From positions 1-52,330 of IMG/VR virus record IMGVR_UViG_3300007735_000753: a DNA stretch of 52,330 bases; one strand, given 5' to 3'. Shown here one piece after another: positions 15,704 through 31,132 of the stretch. The notes below the pieces were generated by a model. It ran no database searches and was not told the origin of the DNA. It worked only from the letters and a program-made list of their open reading frames with translations. How positions within the stretch are numbered: position 1 is the first letter of the stretch; every line of letters starts with the position of its first letter. The translations under genes and the position numbers were made by a program. Source of the DNA: a virus (taxonomy: Duplodnaviria > Caudoviricetes).

Positions 15704-16072
15704 TTACTTGCGACGCTTCTTCGACACTTCGTTGCCAACAAGGCCCCCAGCCCCGCCTCCAGCCGCAGTCACTACAGCGTTGGCAGCCAGCCGACCGCGC
15801 CGCATCTTGCCCTCGTTTCTCCAAGCCACGGATGCGGCTCCGGGCCCATCGGGATCACCCCCGCGATAGCGTATGGACTCAAGCTGGTTATCAGCCTGAT
15901 CCGCTACCCTTCGATCTAAATTAGGGTCTGAAGAAAACCGCTCTTTGTACCTTCGGCCAAGGCGCCTTGCGATCAAGTTGGCTGCAATTGCCCCAGCAAC
16001 ACCGCCACCAAAAACATCGGGGTCTAGCGCCTTCTCAAACACGTCGCGGTTGTCTTCTTGTTTCTTGCTCAT
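15704..16072 (-). CDS. Glycine-zipper small protein with DNRDVFEKAL motif
   Basis: Motif at the N-terminus, two Gly-zipper segments, KKRRK end. Confidence 0.75.
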   Translation of the reverse strand: MSKKQEDNRDVFEKALDPDVFGGGVAGAIAANLIARRLGRRYKERFSSDPNLDRRVADQADNQLESIRYRGGDPDGPGAASVAWRNEGKMRRGRLAANAVVTAAGGGAGGLVGNEVSKKRRK

Positions 16073-16075
16073 GGA

Positions 16076-16609
16076 CTAACCCCCGAACGCGCGCTTCATG
16101 ATGGCCTGAATGAGAACCTGACGCTTGCGCTCTTCTTCAGGATCTGAACTTGCAGAGACGGGGCCCTTCGGTCCCTGATTGACGCCCATGCCGCCCGGCT
16201 GTGCGCCTGGAGCATAAGGCATGTTCTCGACCGGAGGCTTGGACCCCGGCTGCGGGGGCTTCTCGGGCTTTACAAAGCCACGGGAGAACCCCTGACCGAA
16301 CCCATCCGGTTCCTGATAGGGAAGCTGCTCAATACCCGGAGCGGGCATCCCCTGAGACGAGCCCAAGTCCTGAATGCCCGTCGGCTGACCCGGCTGGAAC
16401 GCGCCCATGTTGAAGTCCGGCATCGGACCCGAGAACGGCATATTCTGCACGCCCGGAGCGCCGTCTGGACCGCCGAAGGAAGGACCGAGGTTCATCCCCG
16501 CGCCTACCCCGCCCTGACCACCCTGCGGCGGGGGCATACCCCCACCCTGCGGGCTCTGGAACATCTGCGCCATCAACTGCGCCTGCTGGTTGTTTCCGTA
16601 GAATGACAT
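16076..16609 (-). CDS. Pro/Gly/Gln-rich disordered protein with C-terminal RQVLIQAIM helix
   Basis: GGAGG SD; tandem packing with neighbours. Confidence 0.7.
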   Translation of the reverse strand: MSFYGNNQQAQLMAQMFQSPQGGGMPPPQGGQGGVGAGMNLGPSFGGPDGAPGVQNMPFSGPMPDFNMGAFQPGQPTGIQDLGSSQGMPAPGIEQLPYQEPDGFGQGFSRGFVKPEKPPQPGSKPPVENMPYAPGAQPGGMGVNQGPKGPVSASSDPEEERKRQVLIQAIMKRAFGG

Positions 16610-16615
16610 GAGTGC

Positions 16616-17029
16616 CTAACCTCCTGGCGGCTTGAACATTGGTGTGGTGCGTGGTGCAGGCTTTGCAGGGGGCGCCATGGGCCGTCCTGCGGGTGGCTTA
16701 TAGCTACCCATTCCCCCACCTGCCGGGCCGCCCGCGCGGGCCATCACGGAGCGGATGAGCGCCGTCCTGCCGGGTGACATGCCATTGCCCTGCGGAGCGC
16801 CACCCACGGGCGCCTGTGGGGCGGGTGGTTGGGTCTGTGGAGCCGGGGGCTGTGTCTGGGGCATCGGGGCCTGACCACCGGGGCCATACGCCATGATGGG
16901 CGGTGCCTTTGGGTCGGGGCCGTAGATGGTATTCATATTGGTCGGGGGCGGAGCGGGAGGGGAAACCCGTCCCAGCATCTGAGGCTGCTTTCCGCCCGGA
17001 GCGGTAAACATGGGGTTCATGGGGCTCAT
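16616..17029 (-). CDS. Pro-rich disordered protein with RTALIRSVM helix
   Basis: GAGGA SD; tandem packing. Confidence 0.7.
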   Translation of the reverse strand: MSPMNPMFTAPGGKQPQMLGRVSPPAPPPTNMNTIYGPDPKAPPIMAYGPGGQAPMPQTQPPAPQTQPPAPQAPVGGAPQGNGMSPGRTALIRSVMARAGGPAGGGMGSYKPPAGRPMAPPAKPAPRTTPMFKPPGG

Positions 17030-17030
17030 T

Positions 17031-17327
17031 CTATTCCTCTACTCTCGATCTCATCATGGCGTTTACAAGTCTGACCCGTTCTTGGGGAACGGCTTCAACG
17101 GGTGGTACGGGAGGCTGTGTAATGACGGGGGGTGTTGTAGGCCCACCCGTCGTGGGTGTGGTTGGTGGAGTTGTTGGAGGTATAACGGGCGGGGTCACAA
17201 CCGTCGGACCGGGAGGCTGTGTGATGGGTATGAGGGGTGGCGTTGGCTTCAGCATCCCCGCCGTCTGATAGGTCGGGAACTGGGGCTGCATCGTGATGCC
17301 CTGATAAGACCCAGAGACTTTAGGCAT
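17031..17327 (-). CDS. Pro/Thr-rich protein with C-terminal RVRLVNAMM helix
   Basis: GGAGG SD; overlaps the upstream stop. Confidence 0.7.
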   Translation of the reverse strand: MPKVSGSYQGITMQPQFPTYQTAGMLKPTPPLIPITQPPGPTVVTPPVIPPTTPPTTPTTGGPTTPPVITQPPVPPVEAVPQERVRLVNAMMRSRVEE

Positions 17328-18636
17328 TGCGGCGACCCTCCAACTTCTTGACCTTGCGGGCTAGTTGCTGGGTCGCGGCCATGTTGACGCCCACTGCATC
17401 GACCACGGGGATCTCAGATCCATTCCCAAGACCGAAGAAGCCCTTGAAGTCTTGCGCCATGGGGCCGACGTGGCGCTGTTGGCCTCCATCGGCAACACCA
17501 GGTTTATACTCCCATGACTTGATCGGGATTTTCTCCACGCCCTTCAGGATGGAATTGGCCGGTCTTACATTCTGCTTCTTGTTCTTGTCGGAGATAAGCG
17601 CCGAGCCAAGTGACCCCACAATCGAACCGATGCCCGACCACATCGAACTGTTCTGCTGCTGACGCTGGTTGTAGGCCTGAAGCTGGGCGTTATACGAGTT
17701 CCAGATGTTCCCTTGTACGTCGGGAGCCTGAACGCCCTGCGTATAGATGTTCCCACCCTGAACGGTCGGGGTCTTGGGGCTTGCACCTAGGAGAGTGGCT
17801 ACCCCCTGAGCGGGCGCATTGTACTGAAGCAAGGCCTCATTGGTCATCGCCTGACGTGCCTGCTGGGCCAACTGGGCGTTCTGGAGTTCCTCCGAGATGA
17901 TGCCCTGACGCGCCGTCTGCTGGACCTGACCCTGCTGGAGTTGTTCGGCTATCGCTCGCGCACGTGCATCGGTTCCCAATCCATACATACGGGATTGTTC
18001 TTGTGAGCCTGCTGCCAATGCATCCGCTGCAATGCGCGACATCTGCTCGTTCTGCGAACGGTTGAGACGGTCCATCTCACCGTTGTAGGCCTCACCCGTA
18101 ATGGGAAGGCCCCGATTAGCAAGCATCTGCTGGGTTGCCCGCGTCTGGTTTTCAAACTCAGGACGCAGGAGGCTCATGCCACGGTCGAACATGGTCTGCT
18201 GATAGGAGTCTCGATCAGCAGAGAAATCACCCGAACCCGGAGCGTTCGGAACATTCGACATGTTCAGCCCGTACATGTAGTCGGGCGCCCCGTTGAGATC
18301 CAACCCTGTCGTATAGCCTGGCAGATTGGTGGGAAGGCCAAAGGGGCCTGTAGGGACTGAAGCCGCAAGATTTGCAGCCGCATTGCTCAGGGTTCCCTGA
18401 AGCTGGGTCTGGGCGTCGAATGCGGCTTGCTGTTCAGGAGAGAGGCTCACCCTCTGTGCAATGGGTACTCCCTCGCTATCCTTATCAAACGTGATGTTCC
18501 CGTAGGGTGTGTACTGGGCGAGATTATTGAGCTTGGAGGATTCCTTCGCGGACTTGATATACGCATCCGCCTGCGCCTGGCTGGTCTTTACGGGATCGGG
18601 CGCTGCTGGAGCGCTGCCACCGGCCGACTTACCCAT
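17320..18636 (-). CDS. Pilot/ejection-type protein with C-terminal peptidase S74 (intramolecular chaperone) domain
   Basis: MGK...APAAPDP start, Gln-rich helices, SDKNKKQN...WEYK...HVGPMAQDF. Confidence 0.75.
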   Translation of the reverse strand: MGKSAGGSAPAAPDPVKTSQAQADAYIKSAKESSKLNNLAQYTPYGNITFDKDSEGVPIAQRVSLSPEQQAAFDAQTQLQGTLSNAAANLAASVPTGPFGLPTNLPGYTTGLDLNGAPDYMYGLNMSNVPNAPGSGDFSADRDSYQQTMFDRGMSLLRPEFENQTRATQQMLANRGLPITGEAYNGEMDRLNRSQNEQMSRIAADALAAGSQEQSRMYGLGTDARARAIAEQLQQGQVQQTARQGIISEELQNAQLAQQARQAMTNEALLQYNAPAQGVATLLGASPKTPTVQGGNIYTQGVQAPDVQGNIWNSYNAQLQAYNQRQQQNSSMWSGIGSIVGSLGSALISDKNKKQNVRPANSILKGVEKIPIKSWEYKPGVADGGQQRHVGPMAQDFKGFFGLGNGSEIPVVDAVGVNMAATQQLARKVKKLEGRRNA

Positions 18637-18639
18637 GAG

Positions 18640-19062
18640 TTACTCCTTGATCCACTTGCACTCATCCCGGAGCATTCCAAGGACAAATGCGTCGTTAATT
18701 CCGTCGTATGCTTTGCGGGCGCAACCTTCGATCTTGAAGCCTAGCCCTGTATTCAACTTCAATGCTCTTTCATTATTTGCCCCGATGATGAGCGTCATCC
18801 GTTCCAGTCCCTGCTGGACAAACGGATAATGAAAGAGGGCGGAGAGAACTCCCTTCCTGCACCACTTCGGGCTAGAGGCTGCAAACGTCAGTTCGCAGTC
18901 AAACTTCCTCCAACGATGATAGACAGCCCCACCGATGAGCCTGTCATTCTCCGCAATGCCGATGGTGGTGTAAGGGCCGAACTCCTCGACGCCCATCTTC
19001 TGGGGAAGGAGCGTAACAACGAATTCCGCTACTTCCTGTTCTTTCCCGAATACAAGACTCAG
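18640..19062 (-). CDS. GNAT-family acetyltransferase (start uncertain, probably CTG 19062)
   Basis: NERALKLNTGLGFKIEG motif; typical position after the tail nozzle gene. Confidence 0.8.
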   Translation of the reverse strand: MSLVFGKEQEVAEFVVTLLPQKMGVEEFGPYTTIGIAENDRLIGGAVYHRWRKFDCELTFAASSPKWCRKGVLSALFHYPFVQQGLERMTLIIGANNERALKLNTGLGFKIEGCARKAYDGINDAFVLGMLRDECKWIKE

Positions 19063-20597
19063 ACGAGGCCGGCGGGCTTCATCACCATGCTTGAGGATCG
19101 CCAGCTTACGCCTTGGCTGGTCAGCGAGACCCGCAACCGCATCGAAGCTGAGTAACCCAGCCCGTTCACGCCTTGCCACCCTCTTACCGACTGGCTCGCT
19201 CCGCCCCATACATCTACATCCCATATTGCTTCGTCCCAGATACCGCCGCTATCAACGGCAGCCGTGGAAACGCTTGAGGTTGGAACCGAAATATCAAAGT
19301 CCGTCCCGATTGAAATCAACGCACCGGGATCGCTGACGGCTGAGAAGATAACCCGAGCCATCGTGAAGTTCTTCAGTCGATCACTTGATCCGAAGAAATT
19401 CCATGCTGTCTGGGCATCTCCCACAATGGCGGACCCATTATCAGAGTACCCATCGTTACACTTGTAGACCTTCCCGTCCGTTCCCCCTCCGTAGAGGTTA
19501 TCGTTGAACAGACCGAAGATCGGGAAGTTCCATCCGGTGAACTTGCACCAGGATTGCGTGTCCGTATTCATCACGTGTTGGTCAAAGGCGGAGGTAGACC
19601 GTGGCACGTTGAAGATGAGCATTCGCCCACGGGGGTAGAATATGGCCTGCCAGCCCGTGTTGTCCCGGTAGAGGCGCATGGCCTCGGACACAGCAAGGGA
19701 TATCTTGTCTGAAAGGTCTAACTGGCTGGGCTGGGTACGACCGAAGGGGAGAACCTTCGTGAGTGGAGTGTATGACCCGTCTGTAATAGCAATCAGATCA
19801 GAGCCAAACTGAACGAGGCTGGAGTTGCCAATCGGAGGGCCAAGGTAGAACGTACCCACGCGAGACCAATCCGTAGACGATCCCGGATCAGACCCCTGAT
19901 AGATAATCACTTCACCCGACGAGAGGAAGAACGCGATCAGGTCATCCTGTCCCGTACCGCCATCGCTTGTGATTGTACCAATCGCCTTGAGCACACCACC
20001 GAATGAACCCGTGTACTTCAGCGGGAACTTGGTGAGGCTTCCCGAGATTGCTTGGAGTCCCGCATACCAGAAGTTCAGGGTGTTCTTTTCAATGAAGAAA
20101 AGACGTTCCTTGAAGACTGCTACATCGGAGAGATTGGTAACGGTAAGCCCCGACCCCGACCATGAGGTGGAGGTTAGAGTTGACCCATCATAATCTTGAG
20201 GGGCGTCCGTTCCATTGACAAGGAACAACCGCTCGGAGAAGTTCACCCACTTCCATCGGTTCTGGCTGAAGCCGGTTCCAATTGTGGAGGGTGTAGATGT
20301 GGAAACGTCGATAAGCTTCCCATTCACTGCTGCAACCAGCTTCCGACTAGTAGACGCCTTCCACTCAGCAAGGGTCTGGACTGAATAAGCACCCTCCCCC
20401 GTATTGCAATGGAGCGTGTGCCCCCCCCTGATGACCACATCACTCTGACGGGGGAACCAGTTCTCGAGGATGACGGCATCGCTCGGCTTCATGGAGTCTA
20501 GTGCGTCTCGTGCGTTCCACCCACCAACCGGAGGCGGCAAGGGGCGCTCAACCGCTGCGGGACCGCGACTGACCTGCCTGCCTCTGATCTGGAGCAT
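19059..20597 (-). CDS. Tail nozzle / packaged-DNA stabilization protein
   Basis: PPVGGWNARD...ENWFP, beta-propeller-like repeats, C-terminal WDEAIWDVDVWGG. Confidence 0.8.
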   Translation of the reverse strand: MLQIRGRQVSRGPAAVERPLPPPVGGWNARDALDSMKPSDAVILENWFPRQSDVVIRGGHTLHCNTGEGAYSVQTLAEWKASTSRKLVAAVNGKLIDVSTSTPSTIGTGFSQNRWKWVNFSERLFLVNGTDAPQDYDGSTLTSTSWSGSGLTVTNLSDVAVFKERLFFIEKNTLNFWYAGLQAISGSLTKFPLKYTGSFGGVLKAIGTITSDGGTGQDDLIAFFLSSGEVIIYQGSDPGSSTDWSRVGTFYLGPPIGNSSLVQFGSDLIAITDGSYTPLTKVLPFGRTQPSQLDLSDKISLAVSEAMRLYRDNTGWQAIFYPRGRMLIFNVPRSTSAFDQHVMNTDTQSWCKFTGWNFPIFGLFNDNLYGGGTDGKVYKCNDGYSDNGSAIVGDAQTAWNFFGSSDRLKNFTMARVIFSAVSDPGALISIGTDFDISVPTSSVSTAAVDSGGIWDEAIWDVDVWGGASQSVRGWQGVNGLGYSASMRLRVSLTSQGVSWRSSSMVMKPAGLV

Positions 20598-20600
20598 GGG

Positions 20601-21701
20601 CTACTTTCGACGCTTGGGCGCTTCTACGATTGCGGCTTCGATGTCATCCCGCACCGAGGCGGGTTTCGTTCCCTTGGGAAGGTCGAAGGGTCTCTTGGGC
20701 TTCTTTGGCCTCGGGTTCTCCCAAGGCTCGGGGGGCTTGCGTGGCATGACCTTCGCACCCGTGGCCTCTGCCGGCTTGGCAAACATGCGCTTGATGGCGC
20801 CGCCCGCCTTTGAAATCACTGGGGCCAAGATGCCACCTCCCACCGCTGTTGCCGCCGCGAACGGCGCTATTGATCCATCTTCTGTAACTGCATTGACGCG
20901 GTCGCCCACATCACCTTCCGCCTCACCCATATCCATGACGGCGAGTGTCCCCGCGCCAGAGGCACCGAGCCCAGCCGCTGCTTCCGCCGCCTTGCCCGCT
21001 CCCGTTGTTGCCTCGGGAGCAAACCCCAACAAGCGACGCCCGCCCTTGATGAGCATGTCAGCGCCCTTGTTGATGCCGGAGAAGATTGGCCCTCCAGAAA
21101 GAAGCCCGGCAGTTGTTCCCACGACACTGCGGGGCGAGAATGAAGGCTCGTAAGCCACATCCTCCTCCTTGATGCGACGGGCTTCCTTGACGTTCTCGTC
21201 GTAGGTGCCTTGTCCAAATAAGGCACCTGCCCCCGCAACCACCTCATCATCAAACCCGAACAGGGGCCATGAGAGGCCGTTCAGGATCATGGCTTGGTAT
21301 TTCTCATTCTCGGGGCGTGGGTCATTTTCCCCCGGCTCAAACAATTGCCACGGTTCCGGCATCTCAGGAAGAAACCACGACATGTCGGGGCTGCCTTCCC
21401 CGAGGCTCTTTTCCCACTTCTTTTTACGGTATTCGTATGATCCGCTATCGTCCGCGTAGGGGTCTTCGTACCCCATGCCCTCGAGCACATAGGACCACGT
21501 GGACCGGTTATCCTGGTCCGGGTTGTTGGCGTAGTACTCTTCCTTTCTTTCCTTCATGCTTGCCTGCGTGAAGGGAAGATCGCTGTCCTTGAGTGTGCCC
21601 GCCTTAGCCTTCTGATAGAGAGCGCGCGCCTCTTCCGGGTGCTGCTCTGCCCACTGGGCGATTTGCTCTTCGCGTGAAAGAGAAGGGGGCCGGTAGGGCA
21701 T
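20601..21701 (-). CDS. Paralog of the N-terminal part of ejection protein 11712..14027
   Basis: LFGFDDEVVAGAGALFGQGTYDEN versus LFGYGDEVVAGGGALFDGDYEK; ends SVRDDIEAAIVEAPKRRK. Confidence 0.75.
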   Translation of the reverse strand: MPYRPPSLSREEQIAQWAEQHPEEARALYQKAKAGTLKDSDLPFTQASMKERKEEYYANNPDQDNRSTWSYVLEGMGYEDPYADDSGSYEYRKKKWEKSLGEGSPDMSWFLPEMPEPWQLFEPGENDPRPENEKYQAMILNGLSWPLFGFDDEVVAGAGALFGQGTYDENVKEARRIKEEDVAYEPSFSPRSVVGTTAGLLSGGPIFSGINKGADMLIKGGRRLLGFAPEATTGAGKAAEAAAGLGASGAGTLAVMDMGEAEGDVGDRVNAVTEDGSIAPFAAATAVGGGILAPVISKAGGAIKRMFAKPAEATGAKVMPRKPPEPWENPRPKKPKRPFDLPKGTKPASVRDDIEAAIVEAPKRRK

Positions 21702-21714
21702 CTGTATCTACCCC

Positions 21715-22110
21715 TTAACGACGGCGCGGCTTCTTGCGGCGGGGCTGCTTGGGAATAACCAACTGGTAAGACCCGTCCTTGCGGATCTTGAAGATCACAC
21801 CATCATCCCGGCGCATATGCACGCGGCTGTTATAGGATGTCTGCCATGAGCCAGTTCTTTCATTCCACGTTACCGGCTCGTACCTGCGGCCTTCGCTATC
21901 GCGGTAGTACTTAACTTCTCTCTGTCCTGACGCCCTGTTTGGGAGGATCTCGCGCACAGGATAGATCTTGACTACCTTGGTCTTCATCTTGGGAGACTTT
22001 TTCTTTTTTCCCAAGCCAAAGAGTGACGATGGCCTCTTGGCCGCCGTGGCGCTCTTTGCCGTCGTAGCCTTGATGGCGCGATCAATCGCGAACCTTACCC
22101 CACTCGGCAT
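21715..22110 (-). CDS. Highly basic hypothetical protein
   Basis: AGGAG SD; Lys/Arg-rich; VRFAIDRAI N-terminal helix. Confidence 0.7.
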   Translation of the reverse strand: MPSGVRFAIDRAIKATTAKSATAAKRPSSLFGLGKKKKSPKMKTKVVKIYPVREILPNRASGQREVKYYRDSEGRRYEPVTWNERTGSWQTSYNSRVHMRRDDGVIFKIRKDGSYQLVIPKQPRRKKPRRR

Positions 22111-22113
22111 GTC

Positions 22114-22599
22114 TTAAACTCCTGAATAATCTTTGTAGAAGAACTGCTTGGGGTCCACGGAGCGGTTATCCTTCCTCATCCCGAAATGGAGATGGGGCCC
22201 GGTGCTTCTTCCCGTCGTTCCCACATAGCCGAGGATGTCACCCCGCTTGACCTCGCCCCCGCTCAATCCCTTCTTCGATACCTTGCTCATGTGCAGGTAG
22301 CGGGACTGATACCCGTCCGGGTGCTTGACCGTGACCTTGTACCCACCGACCGGGTCCGGGGTATTTCCATCAATCCACCCGTCTTCTGAGGCGTAGATGG
22401 GAGTGCCAGGTGCAGCGGCGTAATCAATCCCCTCGTGAAGCATTGGCTTCTTGAGGATGGGATGCTCGCGCATACCGTAGGGAGAGGAAACGAAGGATTC
22501 ATCCCTCAACGGAACATCCAGATCGGGAGACCCCTTCTTCATCATGGCGCGGACGAAACGCTCACGCGCCGCTCTGGCCTTGATGCCGTTGTAGGGCAT
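22114..22599 (-). CDS. M23-family metallopeptidase (peptidoglycan hydrolase)
   Basis: HEGIDYAA (HxxxD), YLHM, GRSTGPHLHF (HxH). Confidence 0.92.
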   Translation of the reverse strand: MPYNGIKARAARERFVRAMMKKGSPDLDVPLRDESFVSSPYGMREHPILKKPMLHEGIDYAAAPGTPIYASEDGWIDGNTPDPVGGYKVTVKHPDGYQSRYLHMSKVSKKGLSGGEVKRGDILGYVGTTGRSTGPHLHFGMRKDNRSVDPKQFFYKDYSGV

Positions 22600-23054
22600 T
22601 AGCGACCTCGCTTACCGCGAGATGCCCTGCCCTCTTCATAGGCGCGTCGCATGAGCTTACCCATCGGGGTCTGGCCATAGGGACCGTAGATGATTGGCTT
22701 GATGGCCGCATCATCTCCATTCACCCCCGCCTGATAGGCCCCACGGATCATGCGATCCGACTCTTCCGGGTCTTCATAGGCAGCGGGGAACCCCTCATCC
22801 GCACCTGGACCTTCCATCTGCTTCTTGCGGGCGAATTCGTCCACGTCGCTATCACCCGTCTCATAGGGCATACCCCGACGCATACGGCTTGCAGAGGCTG
22901 CCTGTGGGGCGAAGGATGGGCCCTGAGCGACATTAGCCGCCATCGGGTCCATGCCCATTTCCCCGCCCTCTCCACCCATCTCTGCGCCTTCTAGGACGGT
23001 ATAGATGTCATCACGCACGGTAGGCGGTCGCTTCATCTTCATGTCTAACTCCAC
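22599..23054 (-). CDS. Hypothetical protein with TVRDDIYTVL motif
   Basis: Coupled ORF; largely disordered. Confidence 0.65.
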   Translation of the reverse strand: MELDMKMKRPPTVRDDIYTVLEGAEMGGEGGEMGMDPMAANVAQGPSFAPQAASASRMRRGMPYETGDSDVDEFARKKQMEGPGADEGFPAAYEDPEESDRMIRGAYQAGVNGDDAAIKPIIYGPYGQTPMGKLMRRAYEEGRASRGKRGR

Positions 23055-23743
23055 GTTCCTTCAGGAATGCGACCACGACCCAGTCCCTGGAGCGTTGGCC
23101 CTGCAATGTTCAACTTCCGGCGTGTGCCATCCCGCGCGATGATTTTGGACTTCTCCCGCTCGTACTCGTCGTATCTCTGGGAGTAATCGAGTCCTTTGGC
23201 TTCCAGCCATCTCCACACGAGGGAAAGCGTGAGGAGGTGCTCGGGCAATCTCCCGGTATCACTATCCGCCGCCCATGCCGCCTGTGCCGTACCACCCGAA
23301 GACTGGCACCACTTGTTGGAGACGTACTCGTAGTAGATGGTCTGCCCTGCAGAAGGAGCCGGCATGAAATAGAACTGGTTTCCTCTAATCCGGTACTGAG
23401 ACCAGACGGTGGAGGTCACCTGCGCCTTCTGCGCCTGCCAGCTTTGGGCACTGAGAGGCCCATACACTGGGTCAGTCGTGGTCCGGTTCCACAGGGTCTC
23501 GCTGATGATGCGGTCGAGGTCTGTGGGGAGGGTGTGCCCGGATTGGACCTCAGTAGCCACAGTCGTGAACGATGTTTCCGTCACCAACGCCTGCCAGTCA
23601 TGTTCCCGCATGAGGACATCACCGGCAATGTTGCACAGGGCAAGTAACTGCTTTTGCGTTTCGCCCGTGTTGCTGTAGACGGTGGAAGTCACAGGCAGGT
23701 TGAGCATGGCCTGCGCGCGATTGGTGATCGTGAGCAAACTCAT
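23045..23743 (-). CDS. Head-to-tail adaptor (tail tubular protein A-like)
   Basis: MSLLTI start, HDWQAL, EYVSNKW, WRWLEAKGLDY; position. Confidence 0.75.
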   Translation of the reverse strand: MSLLTITNRAQAMLNLPVTSTVYSNTGETQKQLLALCNIAGDVLMREHDWQALVTETSFTTVATEVQSGHTLPTDLDRIISETLWNRTTTDPVYGPLSAQSWQAQKAQVTSTVWSQYRIRGNQFYFMPAPSAGQTIYYEYVSNKWCQSSGGTAQAAWAADSDTGRLPEHLLTLSLVWRWLEAKGLDYSQRYDEYEREKSKIIARDGTRRKLNIAGPTLQGLGRGRIPEGTWS

Positions 23744-23970
23744 TTCCTGCGCCTTCCGTCATTGAGGGAGGGATAGACCCCCGCCGTGTAACCAGCGCCC
23801 ATGCCGGCAAGTGTCACGAGATTCTTCCGTTTCGCGTGAAACTTCTTCAGCTTGGGGCTTTGCCAGACTTTCCGGTCATAGAGTTTCCTCGCCCCGACAC
23901 CACCGAGTGCGGCCCCTGCAATGGGAGCCACCTCCAGCGCCTTGTCGAAGATGTCCCGGTTGTCTGACAT
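23740..23970 (-). CDS. Glycine-zipper small protein with DNRDIFDKAL motif
   Basis: Paralog of 15704..16072 and 24229..24498; ends GRRRK. Confidence 0.75.
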   Translation of the reverse strand: MSDNRDIFDKALEVAPIAGAALGGVGARKLYDRKVWQSPKLKKFHAKRKNLVTLAGMGAGYTAGVYPSLNDGRRRK

Positions 23971-23971
23971 G

Positions 23972-24229
23972 CTAGCCCTTCCTGGACTTGGTCACGACCG
24001 GCTTCTGGATCGGATACTCAAACGCCTTCTCAAACACATCGCGCGTGTCGATGGAGTTGATGGCCTTCGCAGCCTTCGTCACCGGAGAGACCTGTTTGGC
24101 AGGGCGGTACGGCATTGTCTTTGCTGTGCCCGTCCCCGGTACATAGTTGGGAATGGGAACAGTCTTACCCGTCCCCGGCTTGTACGGCATCTTGGGAAAA
24201 GAGCCGTAGGGGTTCTTCTGGTTCGCCAT
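23972..24229 (-). CDS. Small basic protein with DTRDVFEKAF motif
   Basis: TAATG coupling; internal PGTG repeat. Confidence 0.7.
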   Translation of the reverse strand: MANQKNPYGSFPKMPYKPGTGKTVPIPNYVPGTGTAKTMPYRPAKQVSPVTKAAKAINSIDTRDVFEKAFEYPIQKPVVTKSRKG

Positions 24230-24498
24230 TACTTGCGCCTCTCTTTCTTTTTGGCGTCGTTGTACTGACGGTTCAACGAATGTCCCATGCTGTAGGCGCC
24301 ACCAGCCAGACCGCCAGCCATAGCGCCTTTAAAACCTTCATCGCCAAGGCGCTTACGACCGACTGCCTTCTTTGCTTTCCCAAAAGCACGACCAGCCACG
24401 CCACCAGCGAGCATTCCGGCGATCATTGGGGCGGGGGATTCCATGACCTTGTCAAAGATGTCCCGGTTATCTTCAACTTCCTTGAATTTCTTTCCCAT
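24229..24498 (-). CDS. Glycine-zipper small protein with DNRDIFDKVM motif
   Basis: AAGGAGG SD; ends KKERRK. Confidence 0.75.
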   Translation of the reverse strand: MGKKFKEVEDNRDIFDKVMESPAPMIAGMLAGGVAGRAFGKAKKAVGRKRLGDEGFKGAMAGGLAGGAYSMGHSLNRQYNDAKKKERRK

Positions 24499-24510
24499 GA
24501 GGACGCCTCC

Positions 24511-24864: not shown

Positions 24865-24870
24865 TCGTAG

Positions 24871-25503
24871 TTACTCCTTTGCCTTCCTGGCTCTTGGTTC
24901 TGCGGCAGGTGTCTCGGTTTCCCGTTCCTTCACCGCGCTCAATAATTGGTCCATCTGGATCTGCATCAGGTCCAACTGACGCTTCAGTTCCCGGTTCTCG
25001 ACTTCCATCTTGGCGAGAGGGGCTGCACTCTTTGCGCTATCCATGAACGCCTTCGCCTTCTCGCGCATGTCACGCAGGCCAATGGCGCCCGGCTTTGAAA
25101 TTGCGCCGTCGCTCAACGCTGCCAACTGCTGCACCGTGAAGACGTTCATGTATTCGAGGGCCTTGGCCATCTCGGTCGGGATCAGCGGCCAGAGGGAGAG
25201 TGGAATCCCGTCTCCAATCATGTCCGGGTTAATTCTCTTTGACTTCCAGATGCCGTACTCGTTCGGAAACTGCTCCTTGATCGCCTGCGTCACGCGCTTG
25301 ACCGGGGAGTTGCCTTTGTCCCCTGCAATAAGCAGTTCAACAAACTCAACCGTGCGGAATACGGGGAGGCCGTTCGCATCGATTTCATTCGTGCGCTTTG
25401 TTTCCTCGAAGAAGCGCGGCGTGATGTGCGCCATGTTCTCTTTCTTCGGGATTTTCTGCTGCAAGGCGACGCGGTCGTGCATTTCCATGTTGTCAAAAGA
25501 CAT
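24871..25503 (-). CDS. Conserved-type phage head-region hypothetical protein
   Basis: VFTVQQLAALSD motif; C-terminal coiled coil. Confidence 0.75.
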   Translation of the reverse strand: MSFDNMEMHDRVALQQKIPKKENMAHITPRFFEETKRTNEIDANGLPVFRTVEFVELLIAGDKGNSPVKRVTQAIKEQFPNEYGIWKSKRINPDMIGDGIPLSLWPLIPTEMAKALEYMNVFTVQQLAALSDGAISKPGAIGLRDMREKAKAFMDSAKSAAPLAKMEVENRELKRQLDLMQIQMDQLLSAVKERETETPAAEPRARKAKE

Positions 25504-25574
25504 TGGATCTTCCTTCTAGTCGTAAGACTTCCGCCGGAATTGGCGGAGTGGTCTTGAAAAAATGGAGTGGGGAC

Positions 25575-25760
25575 CTAACCCCCGAAGACCTTCTCGAACA
25601 CGTCGCGTGTGTCTTCAGTAGGAATAGCAAGCATCCTGCGCCTATCCCTCAAAATCTGGTCCGGGCCTGATTCAATGGGCGGGAGGGGCTTGGGTCTTGG
25701 GGTTGGTACAGGTCGCTTGGGTTGGGTCTGCGGCCTTGGCTTCTTGGGCGTCATGCTCAA
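25575..25760 (-). CDS. Small Pro-rich protein ending in the EDTRDVFEKVF motif
   Basis: Overlaps the upstream stop; shared motif. Confidence 0.65.
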   Translation of the reverse strand: MSMTPKKPRPQTQPKRPVPTPRPKPLPPIESGPDQILRDRRRMLAIPTEDTRDVFEKVFGG

Positions 25761-25993
25761 CCCTCAATCATCGGGGAGCCGACTACGGCCCCCGTTGCCT
25801 GCCGACGCTGCTTCCACTCACCGCACCAATCTTCGCTCTTGGTCCATGGCCACGAGCCCACCCACACATCACGCTTGGAGTCGATGCAGCGTGAGGATGT
25901 CTCTGGGCCTGATACACGGCACTTGGCCCATGTCCTCCCGCCAATATCCGCATTGTCCCGCCCCCAGAAGAAGCAGGTTGAGCAATCTTCCAT
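25757..25993 (-). CDS. Small Cys/Trp-rich protein
   Basis: AGGAG SD; CSTC...C...WPWT...DWCGEW. Confidence 0.7.
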   Translation of the reverse strand: MEDCSTCFFWGRDNADIGGRTWAKCRVSGPETSSRCIDSKRDVWVGSWPWTKSEDWCGEWKQRRQATGAVVGSPMIEG

Positions 25994-26003
25994 TGGTGAT
26001 CTC

Positions 26004-28079
26004 CTAGTGAGCCAGAACCCGCTCGGCTTCGTCCGCATGTTCAAGGGGGGCGAACACATCGTCCCGCATGAAGCGTGCTACCTTTCGATATCCATGTTCA
26101 GCCATGAACAGACTAAGCATCCCCTCAGTCCCGCTGATTTCATCAAGGCCCTTGTTCTCACAGACGATGAGGGGCCGGTTGGATTGAATTGTCTCAGAGG
26201 CGCCATAAAGAGCCGGTGCTTCCATCCCCTCAATATCAAGGTAGATGAGGTCCACGCTCTGGGGACCGAGTTTGTCGATGACCATGACGGGGATATTAGG
26301 CACACCGTTCAGGTCAATTCCAATTGAGCCCGTATTGTCCCGGTCCCGAACAGACAGAGCGATCTTCCCCTCCTCCTGCCCGATGGCTGCGTTATGAATG
26401 ACAACATTATCATGCCTCACATTACGCACGAGGCACTTGAAGTTGGTTGGGTCGGGCTCGAACGTCCAGACTTCGTCGAAGACGAGCGCCATTGCATTAG
26501 CGAAGATCCCCACATGACCGCCCGCCTGGATGGCTGTACGACGCTTCTTGCTTGGAATGGCCTCGATGACCTTCCCAATCTTCCATACTTCGTCAATTAC
26601 CGCAGGGACTGAAACCCGGTCCTCCAAAGGCCTCCAGAGGTTATCGTAATGGACGATATCCCCTTCGACCTCGTGCGGCTTGTTGCGCTCTTCGGCGATC
26701 TTCTGGGACACCCACCCCAACAGACCACCACAATGCACATTGATCTCGCACCCCAAGGACGCGAGTTCATCGCTCAGACCGATAAAGTCCTCAACCTGCC
26801 TGATCATCCAGCTTGCGGCTTTGAATTTTCGCCCCTCGACGTTCACATCGATCTGGGCGTCTTTATCGTTCTCGGGTTGGGCGTAGGAATGGTGTTTATC
26901 CTCTTCAAAGGAAGAGTCCATCCCATAGACGTGGATGTACCTGAACCCTTGTGCATAGGCCCCGCAGAGGGCTTTCATGCCTACCGTGGTGCCTCCTCCA
27001 ATGATGGTCACTGCCCTTCCCTTCGGGACAAACTCATCACACGTCGCTTCGTGCCAGAGAATGACCTTTCCCTCTGCCTTGGCAAAGAGTGAGGGGTGAC
27101 ATTGAGAAGCTAGATAATGAACCCAGTCCCCACCCACAAACCGCTCATTCACGTCACGCGCGTCCACAATCCATTGCGCGTCTACGTGAATATTGTTTTC
27201 AGTGAGATACTGAGCCGCCCCGTTCAGGGCCCATATAGTCTGGCCTGACAGGGAGCGGGCTTTGAGTTCAGGAAGGCTGGCCTTGAGGGAGGGACCTCCC
27301 CCTACAATGCAAACACTCTTCTCATTGGCCGGCAGTTGGATGAGTTCTGGTAAACCCAACGAGAGCGCGTGCTCTACATTGGCCTTGAGAACATCCAACT
27401 CGGTATTGCACCGAACGAGGATCTCGAGAGATCCAACGCCCCCAACCTTCCACACATCTGGAACCCACCCAAAATCTACTTCATGCGGTCTTGGATTCCC
27501 ATGAAACACCACAACCTTCGCACCCTTCGGCGGGTACTTCTGACAGTGAACCTTGTACGAAACAAAGTCTCCGGGAAACAGGTTCTGCCACGTAGCAGGA
27601 TACGTTCGCTTCTCGATCCAGGATTGATCCCCGCCCAGATCGTGGGTGGGATACCCTGCGCTAACGTATTCATTCCATAGGTGGTGCCCAAACCCGGACA
27701 CCCACGACATCACGGAGGATTGCTTGCCCCCGGGTCGGTAGAAGTCCTCAAGCATGATGAACTGTTCACTCGCCCTGACGATATCATCAAGTGGACCGAG
27801 GATCAGTGTGTCCAAGTCGAGGAAGAGGATTCTGTCTCCCTTGGGGAATAGCCCCTCGGAGAATAACCAGAGCTTATTCCACCAGCCCTCGAGACCTTCA
27901 GGAAGCGACCTTGTGACAATCGCCTCGTGATAGCCGAGGTTTGGCTCATCAGTGAAGCAAGCAAACTCGCCTTCGGTTCCTCCCTCAAGATTACGGGAGA
28001 CCATGTCGTGAAGGCGATTGACGTATTCAGCCCCCCGGCCAAGGTAGTTCCCCTTCTGCACGCATACGATGTGAAGCAT
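26004..28079 (-). CDS. Three-domain enzyme: GT-A glycosyltransferase + Maf/DUF115-like domain + FkbM-family methyltransferase
   Basis: GWWNKLWLF and FLDLD (DxD); IVGGGPSL...GMDSS; QAGGHVG...FEPDP...LDIEG. Confidence 0.8.
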   Translation of the reverse strand: MLHIVCVQKGNYLGRGAEYVNRLHDMVSRNLEGGTEGEFACFTDEPNLGYHEAIVTRSLPEGLEGWWNKLWLFSEGLFPKGDRILFLDLDTLILGPLDDIVRASEQFIMLEDFYRPGGKQSSVMSWVSGFGHHLWNEYVSAGYPTHDLGGDQSWIEKRTYPATWQNLFPGDFVSYKVHCQKYPPKGAKVVVFHGNPRPHEVDFGWVPDVWKVGGVGSLEILVRCNTELDVLKANVEHALSLGLPELIQLPANEKSVCIVGGGPSLKASLPELKARSLSGQTIWALNGAAQYLTENNIHVDAQWIVDARDVNERFVGGDWVHYLASQCHPSLFAKAEGKVILWHEATCDEFVPKGRAVTIIGGGTTVGMKALCGAYAQGFRYIHVYGMDSSFEEDKHHSYAQPENDKDAQIDVNVEGRKFKAASWMIRQVEDFIGLSDELASLGCEINVHCGGLLGWVSQKIAEERNKPHEVEGDIVHYDNLWRPLEDRVSVPAVIDEVWKIGKVIEAIPSKKRRTAIQAGGHVGIFANAMALVFDEVWTFEPDPTNFKCLVRNVRHDNVVIHNAAIGQEEGKIALSVRDRDNTGSIGIDLNGVPNIPVMVIDKLGPQSVDLIYLDIEGMEAPALYGASETIQSNRPLIVCENKGLDEISGTEGMLSLFMAEHGYRKVARFMRDDVFAPLEHADEAERVLAH

Positions 28080-28108
28080 TGGAAGTCTCGGTTGGGGGGA
28101 AGGAAGAA

Positions 28109-28133
28109 GGGGTGAGCCTTTGGAGCCCACCCC
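28109..28133 (-). terminator. Hairpin after the capsid/decoration genes
   Basis: GGGGTGGGCT...GGCTCACCCC stem (- strand, with G-U pairs) followed by a pyrimidine run. Confidence 0.5.
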
Positions 28134-28148
28134 GGTAGTTACTTAGCC

Positions 28149-28655
28149 TTACGTGGCGGTCTCAATGGCCGGGCGGTTGATAAGAACCGTGACCGTTGAG
28201 GTAGCCGACGCAACCGTCGTCAGGTTGGCAGAGCGAGCGCCCACGATGCCCTTGCCCGAGGAGGCAGTGGTGTAGACGCGGCCCGCCGTGCCCGAGAGCC
28301 AGAGGCCAGTTGCCGGAGGCACAGACACCGCCGTCTTCTTGATGGAGGCCAGACCCTGGATCTGGTACCAGCCATACTGAGACGCAATGTTCGCCGACAT
28401 GGCAACCGCGAGCGGCGAACCGTCCGTGGTGGCGTTGGTCGGAGACAAGGTGGTCTGGAACGTCGTGGCGTTGTACGTCACGAGAGAGCCCACCACCGTC
28501 GAGGCAACGCCCAGAAGGTAGATGAACTCGCCGCCGCCGCCGCCCGTGTCCGTCTGGCGACCACGAACAATGGTCCCCAGCGGGTGGTTGGCGACAGTAT
28601 CGGTCGTGGCGATAGGCTGCCCGCCGATGTAGTTGTCAGTGATAATCCAAGGCAT
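28149..28655 (-). CDS. Capsid decoration / cement protein
   Basis: Immediately after the major capsid gene; GEFIYL and YGWYQIQG. Confidence 0.7.
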   Translation of the reverse strand: MPWIITDNYIGGQPIATTDTVANHPLGTIVRGRQTDTGGGGGEFIYLLGVASTVVGSLVTYNATTFQTTLSPTNATTDGSPLAVAMSANIASQYGWYQIQGLASIKKTAVSVPPATGLWLSGTAGRVYTTASSGKGIVGARSANLTTVASATSTVTVLINRPAIETAT

Positions 28656-28669
28656 ATGTTGTCCCTCCT

Positions 28670-29635
28670 TTAAGCGACAATGACGCCCTGCAGCGAGCGA
28701 TTGCTGCAGGTGAGGTTGCCGGCCCAGCCGATGAGCTTGACCATGGCGTCCTGGTTGACCGAGAACCGATCCGGGTTCATCGGGACCATGTTGCGGTCAC
28801 GGTGAGGACGGAACTTGATGTAGTTGGTGTTCAGGAAGTACATGTGCGCGCTCGGCGCCGTACCCGAGAAACCACCATCATACACAACGTCCGCACCCAT
28901 GAACTTCAGGGTCTGGAAGCCGGCGGAAGCCATCTTGTCGTCAGTGACGCGCTGAATGGCCTGCAGGGATTTCCAGTAATAACCGAAGTAGGTGTTGTCC
29001 GCGACGATGAGGTCCGGCACATCCCGGTTGCGCGAGATGGACAGGTAGAGCGAGTTCATCGCGTCCTGAATCGTCAAAGCCGAAGCCGCGACGCCATTGG
29101 CGCTGAAGTCGTACACCGCGTTCTGCCAGAACGAGTAGGTCGAGGAGTTGATGCCTCCAACCGTACCCGTACCAGCGTCCGACACCAGAAGCTGCAGACC
29201 ACCGATCTGCTTGCCGCCCGTGCCCGTGCCGTCCGAGTAGACGCCCGTGCTGAGGTTGTTCAGCATCGTCTTTTCGGCGTTCTTGATGCGGGCTTCGAGG
29301 AGGTCGATGACCTTCTCACGGCCCGAGTTCTTCAGGAGTTCAAGACCATTGATCTTGACGGCAACGGCGGCCTGCTTCCACTCGTACTCGGCCGAGGTGA
29401 AGACATCCGAAGAGCCCACGTTCAGGGTTTCGTCGCCGCTGTAGTACATGAACGTGCTGTTTTCAGCGTATTCAAGTTCCTCAACGATGGAGCGACCGCC
29501 AGAGACGGGAGCGATGTTTTCCTTGTCCTGAAGACGGGACAGGAGAGCGATATTCTTGGACATGTTGTCACGCAGTTTTCCGCTGCGATAGCGGAGGGTC
29601 GTGGTGACGATTTCGTCCAAACCAGGACTTGGCAT
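28670..29635 (-). CDS. Major capsid protein
   Basis: 321 aa after the scaffold; EIVTTTL...SGG..I.E.LEYAEN; strong codon bias. Confidence 0.88.
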   Translation of the reverse strand: MPSPGLDEIVTTTLRYRSGKLRDNMSKNIALLSRLQDKENIAPVSGGRSIVEELEYAENSTFMYYSGDETLNVGSSDVFTSAEYEWKQAAVAVKINGLELLKNSGREKVIDLLEARIKNAEKTMLNNLSTGVYSDGTGTGGKQIGGLQLLVSDAGTGTVGGINSSTYSFWQNAVYDFSANGVAASALTIQDAMNSLYLSISRNRDVPDLIVADNTYFGYYWKSLQAIQRVTDDKMASAGFQTLKFMGADVVYDGGFSGTAPSAHMYFLNTNYIKFRPHRDRNMVPMNPDRFSVNQDAMVKLIGWAGNLTCSNRSLQGVIVA

Positions 29636-29663
29636 GGATTGTTACCTCATAAGTTTGTTGGGA

Positions 29664-30746
29664 TCAGAGAAGACCCGCAGAAGCGGCTTCAAGAAGCTGC
29701 CTCGTTGACATCCCCTCGGCTGATTGCTCGCCATACATGCCTGAAGCACCCGTGATGCTTGATGCTGCCATGCGGGCCTCCTCGGCTCTCATCCTCTGGG
29801 TGCGGTTTTCCCGTGCGCGGGACTGCGCCAGAAGTTTCGAGCGTGTGTAAGGATTGGCCCACTTGGCTCTCTCATAAGCCTCGTGGATGTTTGAAGCGCG
29901 TCCTGACTCGATTTCGATGGCCATATCTTCTTCAAGTTCATTGAAGTATGGATAGGCCGGCTTTCCATCTGGTCCGACTTGGCTTGCGAAATTCTCAATA
30001 GCATCGTTCGTTACGGTGAACGCCTGATGATACTGTTGCTGCTGTGCAGCTTGCTGCGCCTGCATCTGGACTTGCGCGGTTTGGTTCAGTTGAGCCTGAA
30101 CGCCGGCGAGTTGCTGACGCAGCACAGCGACTTGCGGATCGACATACTCTTCCTCTTGTGGGTTCACGAGAGAGTTGAGGTCGATGCCTCGCAAATTAGC
30201 GAAATACTTGAGGAACTCCTGGGGGGAGTTCGTGGCATATTCTGACAGGGCAATAAGCTGCTGCATGGCTTGGGCCGGGCCCATTCCATTCAGTGCCCAC
30301 TTCTGGACATGCGGGCTGATGACCCGCTCCATCTCCTGATAGCCCTGTCGGACCTTGGCGATTTCCTGTGTCTTGCGCGTGTAGTCCGCCATCATGTGGC
30401 GGGCGCGGTCGAGATAGGCGTGCTGAAGCTGGGGAGGGAGGTTCTTGAAGAACTCCTGCTCCTGCTGCGGCCAGTTGGCGGGTGGATCAATGGGGCCTAG
30501 TTCGTCTTCCCCTTCGTCCTCACCCTCTTCCTCGTCGCCCTCTTCGCCTTCGTCCTCTTCGGAAGCCTCGAGTTCTTCCTCGTCGCCTTCCGTGTCGGTC
30601 TCTAGTTCGTCCTCGTCAGTCTCGAAATCTTCATCATCTTCCGGGCCGTTGATGTCGGGGGTGAAGTCATCATCATCCCCTGCCATTACATCAACTTCTT
30701 CCGAGGCGTCGTAACTGTCGCGCGGGCCTGCCATTGTAGTCTCCAT
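29664..30746 (-). CDS. Capsid scaffolding protein
   Basis: Very acidic N-terminus, ADYTRKTQE, coiled coil, C-terminal STRQLLEAAS helix. Confidence 0.85.
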   Translation of the reverse strand: METTMAGPRDSYDASEEVDVMAGDDDDFTPDINGPEDDEDFETDEDELETDTEGDEEELEASEEDEGEEGDEEEGEDEGEDELGPIDPPANWPQQEQEFFKNLPPQLQHAYLDRARHMMADYTRKTQEIAKVRQGYQEMERVISPHVQKWALNGMGPAQAMQQLIALSEYATNSPQEFLKYFANLRGIDLNSLVNPQEEEYVDPQVAVLRQQLAGVQAQLNQTAQVQMQAQQAAQQQQYHQAFTVTNDAIENFASQVGPDGKPAYPYFNELEEDMAIEIESGRASNIHEAYERAKWANPYTRSKLLAQSRARENRTQRMRAEEARMAASSITGASGMYGEQSAEGMSTRQLLEAASAGLL

Positions 30747-31116: not shown

Positions 31117-31132
31117 TTCAGTCTCCTTCGGA

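Follow-up and report, generated by a model that had tools for sequence, protein, structure and literature searches.

The virus record IMGVR_UViG_3300007735_000753 (52,330 nucleotides, analyzed over its full length and called the window here) is a complete Mx8-like podophage. The IMG/VR entry is complete and bears direct terminal repeats, and its major capsid protein shares 57% identity with the one of Bradyrhizobium phage ppBjS10J-1 and 48% with the one of Myxococcus phage Mx8; a megablast search with 11 kb against cultured phages gave no match. We analyzed a short peptide tag with the strict motif D[NT]RD[VI]F[ED]K, which occurs in five small proteins (P1 to P5) encoded in the late operon, and we compared this tag with looser peptides in neighboring proteins and with the terminal helices of presumed scaffolding proteins. 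All sequences in the comparison were metagenomic.

The strict motif and its genes

The late operon lies on the minus strand. In transcription order it starts with the terminase and portal genes (35101-37653), followed by fibre-like genes, a Cys-rich 127-amino acid (aa) gene, the presumed scaffold gene, the capsid gene and a gene for a structural protein like Mx8 p49. Then come a gene for a 708-aa glycosyltransferase/methyltransferase, P5, two conserved genes, P3, P4, P2 and an SU10-type adaptor gene (23045-23743). After the adaptor there are a 151-aa gene, an M23 peptidase gene, a 131-aa gene, a 366-aa gene and the nozzle gene (19059-20597), and after the nozzle an acetyltransferase, an S74 fibre, three Pro/Gly/Gln-rich genes, P1, and the genes for 553-aa and 776-aa proteins. 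All tag genes are thus inside the late structural operon. The backbone is shared with Mx8 and ppBjS10J-1, which lack both these small genes and the strict motif. The five tagged proteins are:

15704..16072, minus strand: P1, 122 aa, glycine-zipper family; N-terminal tag QEDNRDVFEKAL (16025-16060), two Gly zippers, C-terminal KKRRK
23740..23970, minus strand: P2, 76 aa, glycine-zipper family; tag SDNRDIFDKAL (23935-23967), end RRRK
24229..24498, minus strand: P3, 89 aa, glycine-zipper family; tag VEDNRDIFDKVM (24442-24477), end ERRK
23972..24229, minus strand: P4, 85 aa, basic, with MPYKPGTG-type repeats; tag SIDTRDVFEKAF (24020-24055) near the C-terminus, then 15 residues ending KSRKG
25575..25760, minus strand: P5, 61 aa, Pro-rich, basic; C-terminal tag TEDTRDVFEKVF (25584-25619)

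An earlier note on this DNA had listed these five small open reading frames (ORFs) as sharing the motif, and a six-frame scan of the whole window bore this out. It found exactly five matches, one per named ORF and all on the minus strand (nt 16031-16054, 23941-23964, 24026-24049, 24448-24471, and 25590-25613), and no further copy. The back-translated motif, used as a DNA pattern, likewise matched five times in the window, and none of 100 dinucleotide-preserving shuffles contained any match. The motif had also been described as terminal. It is N-terminal in the three ORFs in which it starts at residue 3, 7, or 10; the other two copies, starting at residue 61 of 85 in P4 and 50 of 61 in P5, are near the C-terminus. 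The P5 ORF starts with TTG, and an ATG two codons downstream is an equally likely start.

This phage and its relatives together provided 35 distinct motif DNAs of 33 nt. Asp is encoded by GAC in 24 and by GAT in 11, Phe by TTT in 18 and by TTC in 17, and Arg and Ala use four codons each, while the residues are fixed. Because synonymous codons vary freely across the 35 copies, selection acts on the motif peptide and not on the DNA, as had been claimed from the synonymous differences within the window; the use of all synonymous codons rules out a DNA or RNA element underlying the motif.

We also considered whether the tag genes could be morons with their own promoter and terminator. No minus-strand promoter-like sites were found beside them, and the late operon has only two terminator-like hairpins, at 28133-28109 (after the p49-like gene) and at 25583-25569 (directly after P5). 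The P3, P4, P2, and adaptor genes have overlapping or abutting stops and starts, with the P2 stop overlapping the adaptor start (ATGA). The moron hypothesis is therefore unsupported.

A hypervariable family with two conserved ends

P1, P2, and P3 are paralogs of one family, in which Met and a few basic residues are followed by EDNRD[IV]FEKALD, often Ala-Pro, a glycine zipper, a variable basic linker, a second zipper, and a terminal K-R-R-K. Searches retrieved 64 family clusters at 90% identity among 5.8 billion, all metagenomic, and 234 representatives at 50% identity (E <= 0.001). One cluster bears the JGI source name 'outer membrane lipoprotein SlyB', which seems automatic. The motif expression fits 123 of 124 fetched members, which have on average 112 aa, an isoelectric point (pI) of 10.15, 21% Lys plus Arg, and 27% Gly plus Ala. 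The motif and the KRRK end are nearly invariant, and the middles are hypervariable with a mean column identity of ~21%. The Arg codons of the KRRK ends are mostly CGN, which rules out that this end is a by-product of the Shine-Dalgarno sequence of the next gene. A sequence search of the PDB with the family gave low-complexity matches to ribosomal P1 only. P4 and P5 have no zippers, and their orthologs in the relative G001 keep the motif.

A putative docking helix at both ends of the scaffold family

The gene upstream of the capsid gene encodes the presumed scaffolding protein:

29664..30746, minus strand: presumed scaffolding protein, 360 aa; C-terminal helix STRQLLEAASAG (29673-29708)

It has homologs in Mx8 and ppBjS10J-1 and is syntenic with Mx8 p47/p48. 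We fetched 80 loci around capsid-protein relatives of 56-94% identity (80 of the 560-590 or more in IMG/VR; the protein collection has roughly 8,000), and in 73 of these loci a long ORF terminates shortly before the capsid gene. Scaffold ORFs of at least 250 aa provided 59 unique C-terminal tails, and 57 of these align ungapped in a 12-column block, [ST]-[LIV]-[RE]-[DEG]-[DEQ]-[LIV]-x-x-[AN]-[FWYLM]-x-x, followed by 2-6 residues that often end in Arg and a hydrophobic residue. The consensus of this C-terminal helix is [ST]-[LIV]-R-[DE]-x-[LI]-x-x-A-[FWLM]. A second helix copy lies within the first 40 residues of 50 of the 66 distinct scaffolds. The two copies co-vary at column 3: 33 of 43 unique pairs have Arg in both, nine have another residue in both, and one is discordant (Fisher 1.8e-8, uncorrected for kinship). 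An AlphaFold2 model of one related scaffold (predicted local distance difference test score, pLDDT, 80.9) has a confident helical core (residues 90-316), with both motifs as short helices (11-23 and 331-343) on disordered tethers. A large scaffold family without annotation thus has a predicted docking helix at each of its two ends, which is new here.

The scaffold of the window has no N-terminal helix copy, and its first 95 residues are poly-acidic (46 Asp plus Glu, one Lys plus Arg). The scaffold of the window's clade lost the N-terminal copy and has the poly-acidic tract in its place. An acidic scaffold N-terminus is also present in the nearest outgroup loci, L070 and L073.

We found no mimics of the scaffold end in crude ORF sets of Mx8 and ppBjS10J-1, in which only the Mx8 scaffold's own N-terminus resembles its end. 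A 367-aa protein with a scaffold-like tail in locus L083 was rejected as a mimic since it is a scaffold paralog. That locus encodes two scaffold paralogs (2311-3414 and 7210-8361), each with the docking helix at both ends (MNDIRSALAAAI...RSLRDEIVAHLDSA and ...QDIRSAVAAAL...RSLREEILAHMDSV). ORFs of 718-818 aa lie upstream of the scaffold gene in several loci (L083 3505-5661, L140 138-2576, L084 5646-8102, and four more) and are probably portals; they contain a scaffold-helix-like AR[TS]LEE.LE.AFD ~100 residues before the C-terminus.

Terminal peptides of accessory proteins resemble the scaffold helices

Besides the five strict copies, the earlier note had listed looser versions in four accessory proteins and at the end of the scaffold. 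All five are where they had been reported. The accessory proteins in question, together with the M23 peptidase and three low-complexity ORFs, are:

20601..21701, minus strand: 366-aa accessory protein; C-terminal helix SVRDDIEAAI (20628-20657), then VEAPKRRK
22599..23054, minus strand: 151-aa accessory protein; N-terminal helix TVRDDIYTVL (22992-23021), basic C-terminus GKRGR
21715..22110, minus strand: 131-aa accessory protein; N-terminal helix GVRFAIDRAI (22072-22101), C-terminus RRKKPRRR
30802..31185, minus strand: 127-aa Cys-rich protein upstream of the scaffold gene (place of Mx8 p46); C-terminal helix DPVADIRRAMEE (30820-30855)
22114..22599, minus strand: M23 peptidase, 161 aa (PF01551, 2.2e-28); N-terminal extension with RERFVRAMM (22540-22566), a terminal regular-expression match
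16076-16609, 16616-17029, and 17031-17327, minus strand: three Pro/Gly/Gln-rich low-complexity ORFs, two of which end in a related helix (RQVLIQAIMKRAF, RVRLVNAMMRSRV)

We compared these peptides with profiles built from foreign scaffolds only: a hidden Markov model (HMM) of 57 tails, a C-terminal position-specific scoring matrix (PSSM), and a PSSM of 40 unique N-terminal copies. The protein set comprised 75 window proteins, hand-curated post hoc (greedy non-overlapping ORFs, with 13 removed and six small minus-strand ORFs added), and gave 15,362 peptide windows. The top match of the scaffold-tail HMM in this proteome was the C-terminus of the 366-aa protein (9.0 bits, E 0.0079), and the next match had 5.1 bits. 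With the N-terminal-copy PSSM, all ten peptides of the earlier note were among the top 34 of 15,362 windows. The ranks in the C-terminal PSSM and the N-terminal PSSM, respectively, were:

366-aa C-terminus: 1 and 1
127-aa C-terminus: 6 and 3
P4: 36 and 8
P5: 102 and 12
P1: 69 and 14
151-aa N-terminus: 10 and 15
own scaffold end: 3 and 18
131-aa N-terminus: 122 and 21
P3: 365 and 26
P2: 607 and 34

The 34 windows scoring at or above the lowest of the ten peptides compare with 15.9 +/- 3.9 (maximum 28) in 300 within-protein shuffles, and 16 of them were within 25 residues of an end, compared with 3.5 +/- 1.9 (maximum 11) in the shuffles. The likeness of the accessory peptides to the scaffold end, which had been noted from the sequence alone, is thus recovered with profiles that contain no sequence of this phage. 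As judged from these scores, the strict motif is clearly like the N-terminal scaffold copy and weakly like the C-terminal helix.

The looser peptides were not detected by an HMM of the strict motif (all <= 4.1 bits), and a BLOSUM ranking of them against the strict motif in the window genome was unremarkable (ranks 32 to 1664 of 15,512). A hand-made regular expression for terminal peptides, written post hoc, had eight terminal matches, all in late genes, and none in 1,960 terminal windows of other genes. The looser versions are thus borne out in part: the strict-motif HMM misses them, and they rank high in the N-helix PSSM.

Several observations connect the two versions. The 366-aa protein, paralogous to the N-terminal part of the family to which the 776-aa protein belongs, has orthologs of ~30% identity, yet all of these end with [ST]VR[DGS]DI..A[LI], 4-5 residues, and then RRR or KRRK. 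The G005 ortholog of the 151-aa protein has RGRDIWDRV at the aligned place, which is close to the strict motif, and the ortholog of the 131-aa protein in contig JACCDP010360833.1 has GGLDIWDTAL at its start and then a glycine zipper. Loose and strict copies occur in tandem in two proteins (G003 12905-13285 and P0204). G002, G003, and JACCDP010360833.1, which have few strict copies, have many small operon ORFs with a terminal [ST][IV]R.DI..A. Because orthologs swap the versions at one terminus, because of the tandem copies, and because of the pattern in these three records, loose and strict versions appear interchangeable.

The accessory proteins with loose peptides also have Arg/Lys-rich C-terminal tails. 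Proteins at the position of the 127-aa protein in four other loci have the helix near the C-terminus. The N-terminal extension of the M23 peptidase is kept in two orthologs, and this protein is a likely enzyme cargo. The end helix of the two Pro/Gly/Gln-rich ORFs, R-x-R-L-[IV]-x-A-[IVM]-M, is kept in orthologs while the rest diverges, and RERFVRAMM of the M23 peptidase resembles it.

Capsid residue 114 tracks the scaffold-helix Arg

The capsid gene and the residue that emerged from the comparison are:

28670..29635, minus strand: major capsid protein, 321 aa (phrog_9953, 2.3e-112)
29294-29296, minus strand: capsid Glu114, in segment GREKVIDLLEARIKNAEKTML (29261-29323), context IDLL-E-ARIKNAEK

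We paired scaffold tails with capsid proteins and screened the capsid columns for those tracking helix column 3. A second fetch, centred on Mx8, gave both proteins for 115 of 160 loci, resulting in 104 unique pairs or, with the window, 105 rows. Residue 114 was the standout column, with these combinations of helix column 3 and capsid residue 114:

R and E: 78 rows
R and D: 5 rows
K and E: 1 row
R and T: 1 row
E and A: 13 rows
E and S: 2 rows
E and G: 2 rows
E and K: 1 row
I and R: 1 row
L and A: 1 row

The Glu-type scaffold helices go with Lys or Arg at capsid residue 118 in 18 of 18 rows. Using a tree built without column 114, we obtained six phylogenetically independent pairs that differ in the helix residue. 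In the mean, residue 114 shifted the same way in 5.8 of them, the opposite way in 0, and was unchanged in 0.2 (two-sided sign test, median p 0.031, range 0.031-0.0625), and column 114 ranked first among all capsid columns (5.7 vs 3.5 for the next). In the first sample five columns differed in all five lineages, of which 114 alone was 90% conserved in Arg-type rows, the others being 23-72% conserved. Mx8 (Arg/Glu) and ppBjS10J-1 (Glu/Ala114 with Lys118) obey the rule. Such co-variation is the signature of a salt bridge, predicted to link the docking helix to the capsid protein. Because the helix Arg co-varies with residue 114, the capsid protein is indicated as the partner of the scaffold helix. 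Judged by its place in the sequence, the segment around residue 114 probably corresponds to the spine helix of the HK97 fold, which faces the interior; a PDB sequence search with the capsid protein gave one weak match, 6j3q. Capsid residues 49-60 (SIVEELEYAENS) also score high against the C-terminal scaffold PSSM.

At the position of the helix Arg, the tag has Arg in 34 of the 35 strict-motif DNAs and in every loose copy, and the window has Glu114. The earlier note had proposed that the accessory peptides mimic the scaffold and dock on its capsid site. What we found for the scaffold helix, whose Arg tracks residue 114, supports this in part; docking of the accessory peptides would be predicted from their likeness to that helix, which for the strict motif is weak in the C-terminal profile.

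The tag genes turn over rapidly within a narrow clade

An IMG/VR scan with the DNA pattern of the motif gave 31 matches in 26 stretches, 28 of them in such small ORFs; the remaining three, in unrelated longer ORFs, were taken as chance. Every readable context of these matches belongs to the same narrow clade, with a capsid protein at least 90% identical. The strict-motif HMM, applied to eight genomes, found 22 ORFs with at least 11.8 bits and everything else at 4.1 bits or below. There are five strict copies in the window, eight in G001 (capsid protein 98% identical), and one each in G002 to G005; HMM counts that include near-strict variants are two in G002, four in G003, one in G004, and two in G005. 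The tag genes occupy different operon junctions across phages, and the P3 ortholog in G001 adjoins the scaffold gene. They undergo rapid gain, loss, and movement within an otherwise collinear module.

In several clade relatives (G002:C1:40884-42725, G004, L066 7574-9415, and L068) the capsid gene, which is uninterrupted in the window, is split after about residue 84-91 by a ~0.85 kb insertion that could be an intron or homing element.

Proposed role of the tag and alternative explanations

We propose that this Mx8-like lineage uses, at the ends of its scaffold, a short amphipathic docking helix on a tether and that the motif is a version of this helix, for which the chances stand about even. 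We give similarly balanced odds to the joint claim that the accessory helices dock on the capsid and that their proteins are built into procapsids. About ten late-operon accessory proteins have a profile-fitting terminal peptide, namely those of the five strict ORFs, the 366-, 151-, 131-, and 127-aa proteins, and probably the M23 peptidase. Their helices would bind the inner-face capsid site used by the scaffold helices, with the conserved Arg pairing with Glu114, and the tagged proteins would thereby be incorporated in the procapsid. We speculate that the very basic bodies (pI about 10, KRRK ends) pair first with the acidic scaffold N-terminus and next with the incoming DNA, so that they would be retained on scaffold exit and ejected at infection. 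Loss of the N-terminal helix from the clade's scaffold might free capsid sites for tagged proteins, and the glycine-zipper hairpin might join the N-terminal helix with the C-terminal basic end. After ejection the glycine zippers or the peptidase could act on the host envelope, or the proteins could counter host defences. An M23 peptidase whose N-terminal extension resembles the tag is consistent with delivery; the true lysis genes are at another place in the genome.

A bolder reading, at a probability of roughly 0.35, is that the peptide serves as a portable address label. Any small protein gaining a helix of ~12 residues, with its Arg paired to capsid Glu114, at either terminus would be built into the procapsid; the acidic scaffold arm would hold the basic cargo until DNA replaces it, and a fast-changing set of zipper, Pro-rich, and peptidase proteins would enter the host ahead of or with the genome.

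Several points weigh against the proposed docking and incorporation. In evolutionary terms the five strict copies count as a single observation, and three of them are paralogs. The strict motif is weak against the C-terminal PSSM (ranks 36-607) and outside the top 25 of the scaffold-tail HMM; its link to the scaffold depends on the profile of the N-terminal copies and on orthologs swapping the two versions. The co-variation comes from only six lineages. The scaffold label is based on gene position and synteny and on the all-helical model with flexible ends: none of 47 scaffold family members had a PHROG match, the scaffold had no sequence match in the PDB, a Foldseek search with the scaffold model gave none at E <= 0.001, and the Atlas gave no named relatives, its nearest named cluster, PF09306 at 0.89, being a weak lead to Phage-scaffold families. 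A search with the family profile found nothing above 256 aa in length, which is weak evidence. Small tagged proteins could also leave the capsid along with the scaffold, and glycine zippers would equally fit a membrane role unrelated to capsids.

The best of the alternatives, which we consider unlikely but worth weighing, is that the tagged proteins are auxiliary assembly factors whose helix binds the capsid and whose basic body binds the acidic scaffold arm, replacing the lost N-helix in trans, and which exit at maturation. The profile and co-variation evidence fits this equally well as delivery. The clade's scaffold lacks a helix copy that is present in most related scaffolds, its N-terminus is poly-acidic, and the tagged proteins have a pI of about 10. 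However, an essential factor should be conserved, yet at 98% capsid identity the copies differ in number (5 vs 8) and position, and the middles of the tagged proteins are hypervariable. A tag-like N-terminus on an M23 peptidase makes sense only with delivery.

It is rather improbable that the tagged proteins are a membrane-active family unrelated to capsids (acting in lysis timing, exclusion, or as a DNA-entry channel), in which the helix would bind a membrane or host partner and its scaffold likeness would be generic. The family does have two GxxxG-type zippers. PF05433 matches P1 with 18.0 bits, under the curated cut-off of 24.2, without a match to P2-P5; PF13488 or PF05433 matches two of 64 family relatives; and AlphaFold2 predicts two helices in P2 (residues 4-35 and 49-63) at low confidence (pLDDT 63). 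Yet hydrophobicity is low, with a top 19-residue Kyte-Doolittle mean of 1.19 on average and 1.72 at maximum, and the loops are strongly basic. P4 and P5 share the motif without any zipper, the phage has a separate lysis cassette at 4783-6572, and neither the excess of terminal windows over shuffles nor the ortholog swapping would be explained.

Shared ancestry might alone account for the motif, as the conserved end of a paralog family that was acquired twice by small neighbor genes, with the looser matches due to chance. The paralogy of three strict copies, the unremarkable BLOSUM ranks of the loose peptides, and the ease with which a post hoc expression can fit many helices agree with this. 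We nevertheless regard it as improbable: both ends of the zipper family are near-invariant while the middles diverge, all but one of the fetched members keep the motif, as do the P4 and P5 orthologs, and the independent scaffold profile and the shuffles oppose chance.

A leader or processing signal read by a protease or exporter, such as a C39-type peptidase (double-glycine leader or T4-like), is very improbable, although the phage encodes a C39 domain (6063-6572), the leader of the family is conserved and its core variable, and GG often follows the motif, since the motif is C-terminal in P4 and P5, the distance from motif to GG varies, and the C39 gene is absent from the motif-bearing G001, G002, and G003, for which the C39 peptidase was rejected as the processing enzyme.

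Relation to known systems

By analogy, the nearest known function would be that of the T4 capsid targeting sequence, and the nearest mechanism that shared by the scaffolding protein SP of phage 80alpha and CpmB of SaPI1. In T4 a shared peptide of ~10 residues directs basic, fast-evolving small proteins (IPI-III and Alt) to the prohead, from which they are injected with the DNA. This sequence occurs only at the N-terminus; it binds the scaffolding core, and the prohead protease removes it. The likeness is a short peptide common to several unrelated small phage proteins, here five strict copies in three architectures plus four looser ones. The tag here differs in that four proteins (P4, P5, the 366-aa protein, and the 127-aa protein) have it near the C-terminus and in that it resembles the scaffold's own capsid-binding helix, and no prohead protease gene was found among 55 window proteins scanned with Pfam and PHROGs. 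In encapsulins and engineered P22 scaffold fusions, a short terminal peptide or a piece of the scaffold docks cargo inside an HK97-fold shell. Encapsulins work without scaffold and without DNA and the P22 fusions are man-made, whereas the tag here would be a natural derivative of a scaffold helix.

The GxxxG-rich helical hairpin resembles the Pfam families PF05433 (Rick_17kDa_Anti) and PF13488 (Gly-zipper_Omp). Unlike those families, the proteins here score below the cut-off and have no lipoprotein signal, and the N-terminal tag and the KRRK end are foreign to them.

In both SP of 80alpha and CpmB of SaPI1, the last 16 residues consist of an 11-residue amphipathic helix and a 5-residue basic hook with RIIK, and with this end the two proteins bind one and the same site on the capsid protein (PMC5644958). 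There, as here, a non-scaffold protein has a scaffold-like terminal helix; by profile, the end of the 366-aa protein is homologous to that of scaffolds, and both this protein and P4 consist at the very C-terminus of a helix, a short spacer, and KRRK or SRKG. The glycine-zipper family might combine helix and basic end in a manner like the 80alpha helix and hook, with the two at opposite termini, and the tag here is found at either terminus. CpmB comes from a satellite and redirects capsid size, whereas here the phage itself encodes ~10 proteins, mostly tiny and basic. The co-variation indicates residue 114 and not the N-arm helix, and the docking here is predicted.

In P22, the ejection proteins enter the procapsid only with scaffold present, through their N-terminal parts, according to the section on them in PMC8402733. 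The part of the ΦGT1 paper that treats Mx8 assigns it a P22-type module and places internal virion genes, in some cases, between tubeA and tubeB (PMC10386132). The genes for the 151-, 131-, and 366-aa proteins and the peptidase occupy the tubeA-tubeB interval here. The likeness to P22 gp7, gp16, and gp20 is thus in the kind of virus and the P22-like module order (PMC10386132); the P22 ejection proteins are larger and few, and that section describes no shared tag (PMC8402733). In open-access full text we found no description of such a tag in the Mx8-like phage group.

The choice of minor head proteins in podophages is poorly understood, and for P22 the same section gives only the need for the scaffold (PMC8402733). 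If docking and incorporation hold true as proposed, this provides a defined 12-residue tag and a predicted contact between the tag Arg and capsid Glu114, testable by charge swap; a reason for the quick gene turnover in the middle of a structural operon; and a simple natural handle to package foreign proteins in phage heads or capsid-like particles. Read as an address label, the peptide would be the first cargo tag of a tailed phage that is natural, derived from a scaffold, and independent of a protease, and its contact residue is already predicted.

Other features of the window

Two further genes and a shared protein start deserve mention:

6063-6572, minus strand: Peptidase_C39 domain protein (PF03412, 1.3e-16), adjoining a spanin-like gene; probably the endolysin of this phage
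26004-28130, minus strand: 708-aa fusion protein of a glycosyltransferase (phrog_1962), an MptE-like/Maf-type domain (PF01973, 3.1e-16), and an FkbM methyltransferase (PF05050)

The 708-aa fusion, encoded between head genes, occurs in every clade relative at 64-79% identity and in neither Mx8 nor ppBjS10J-1; virion proteins may be what it glycosylates. MPY-x-[PG] is the start shared by the 366-aa protein, the M23 peptidase, and the 776-aa protein (11712-14042, minus strand, from an internal Met).

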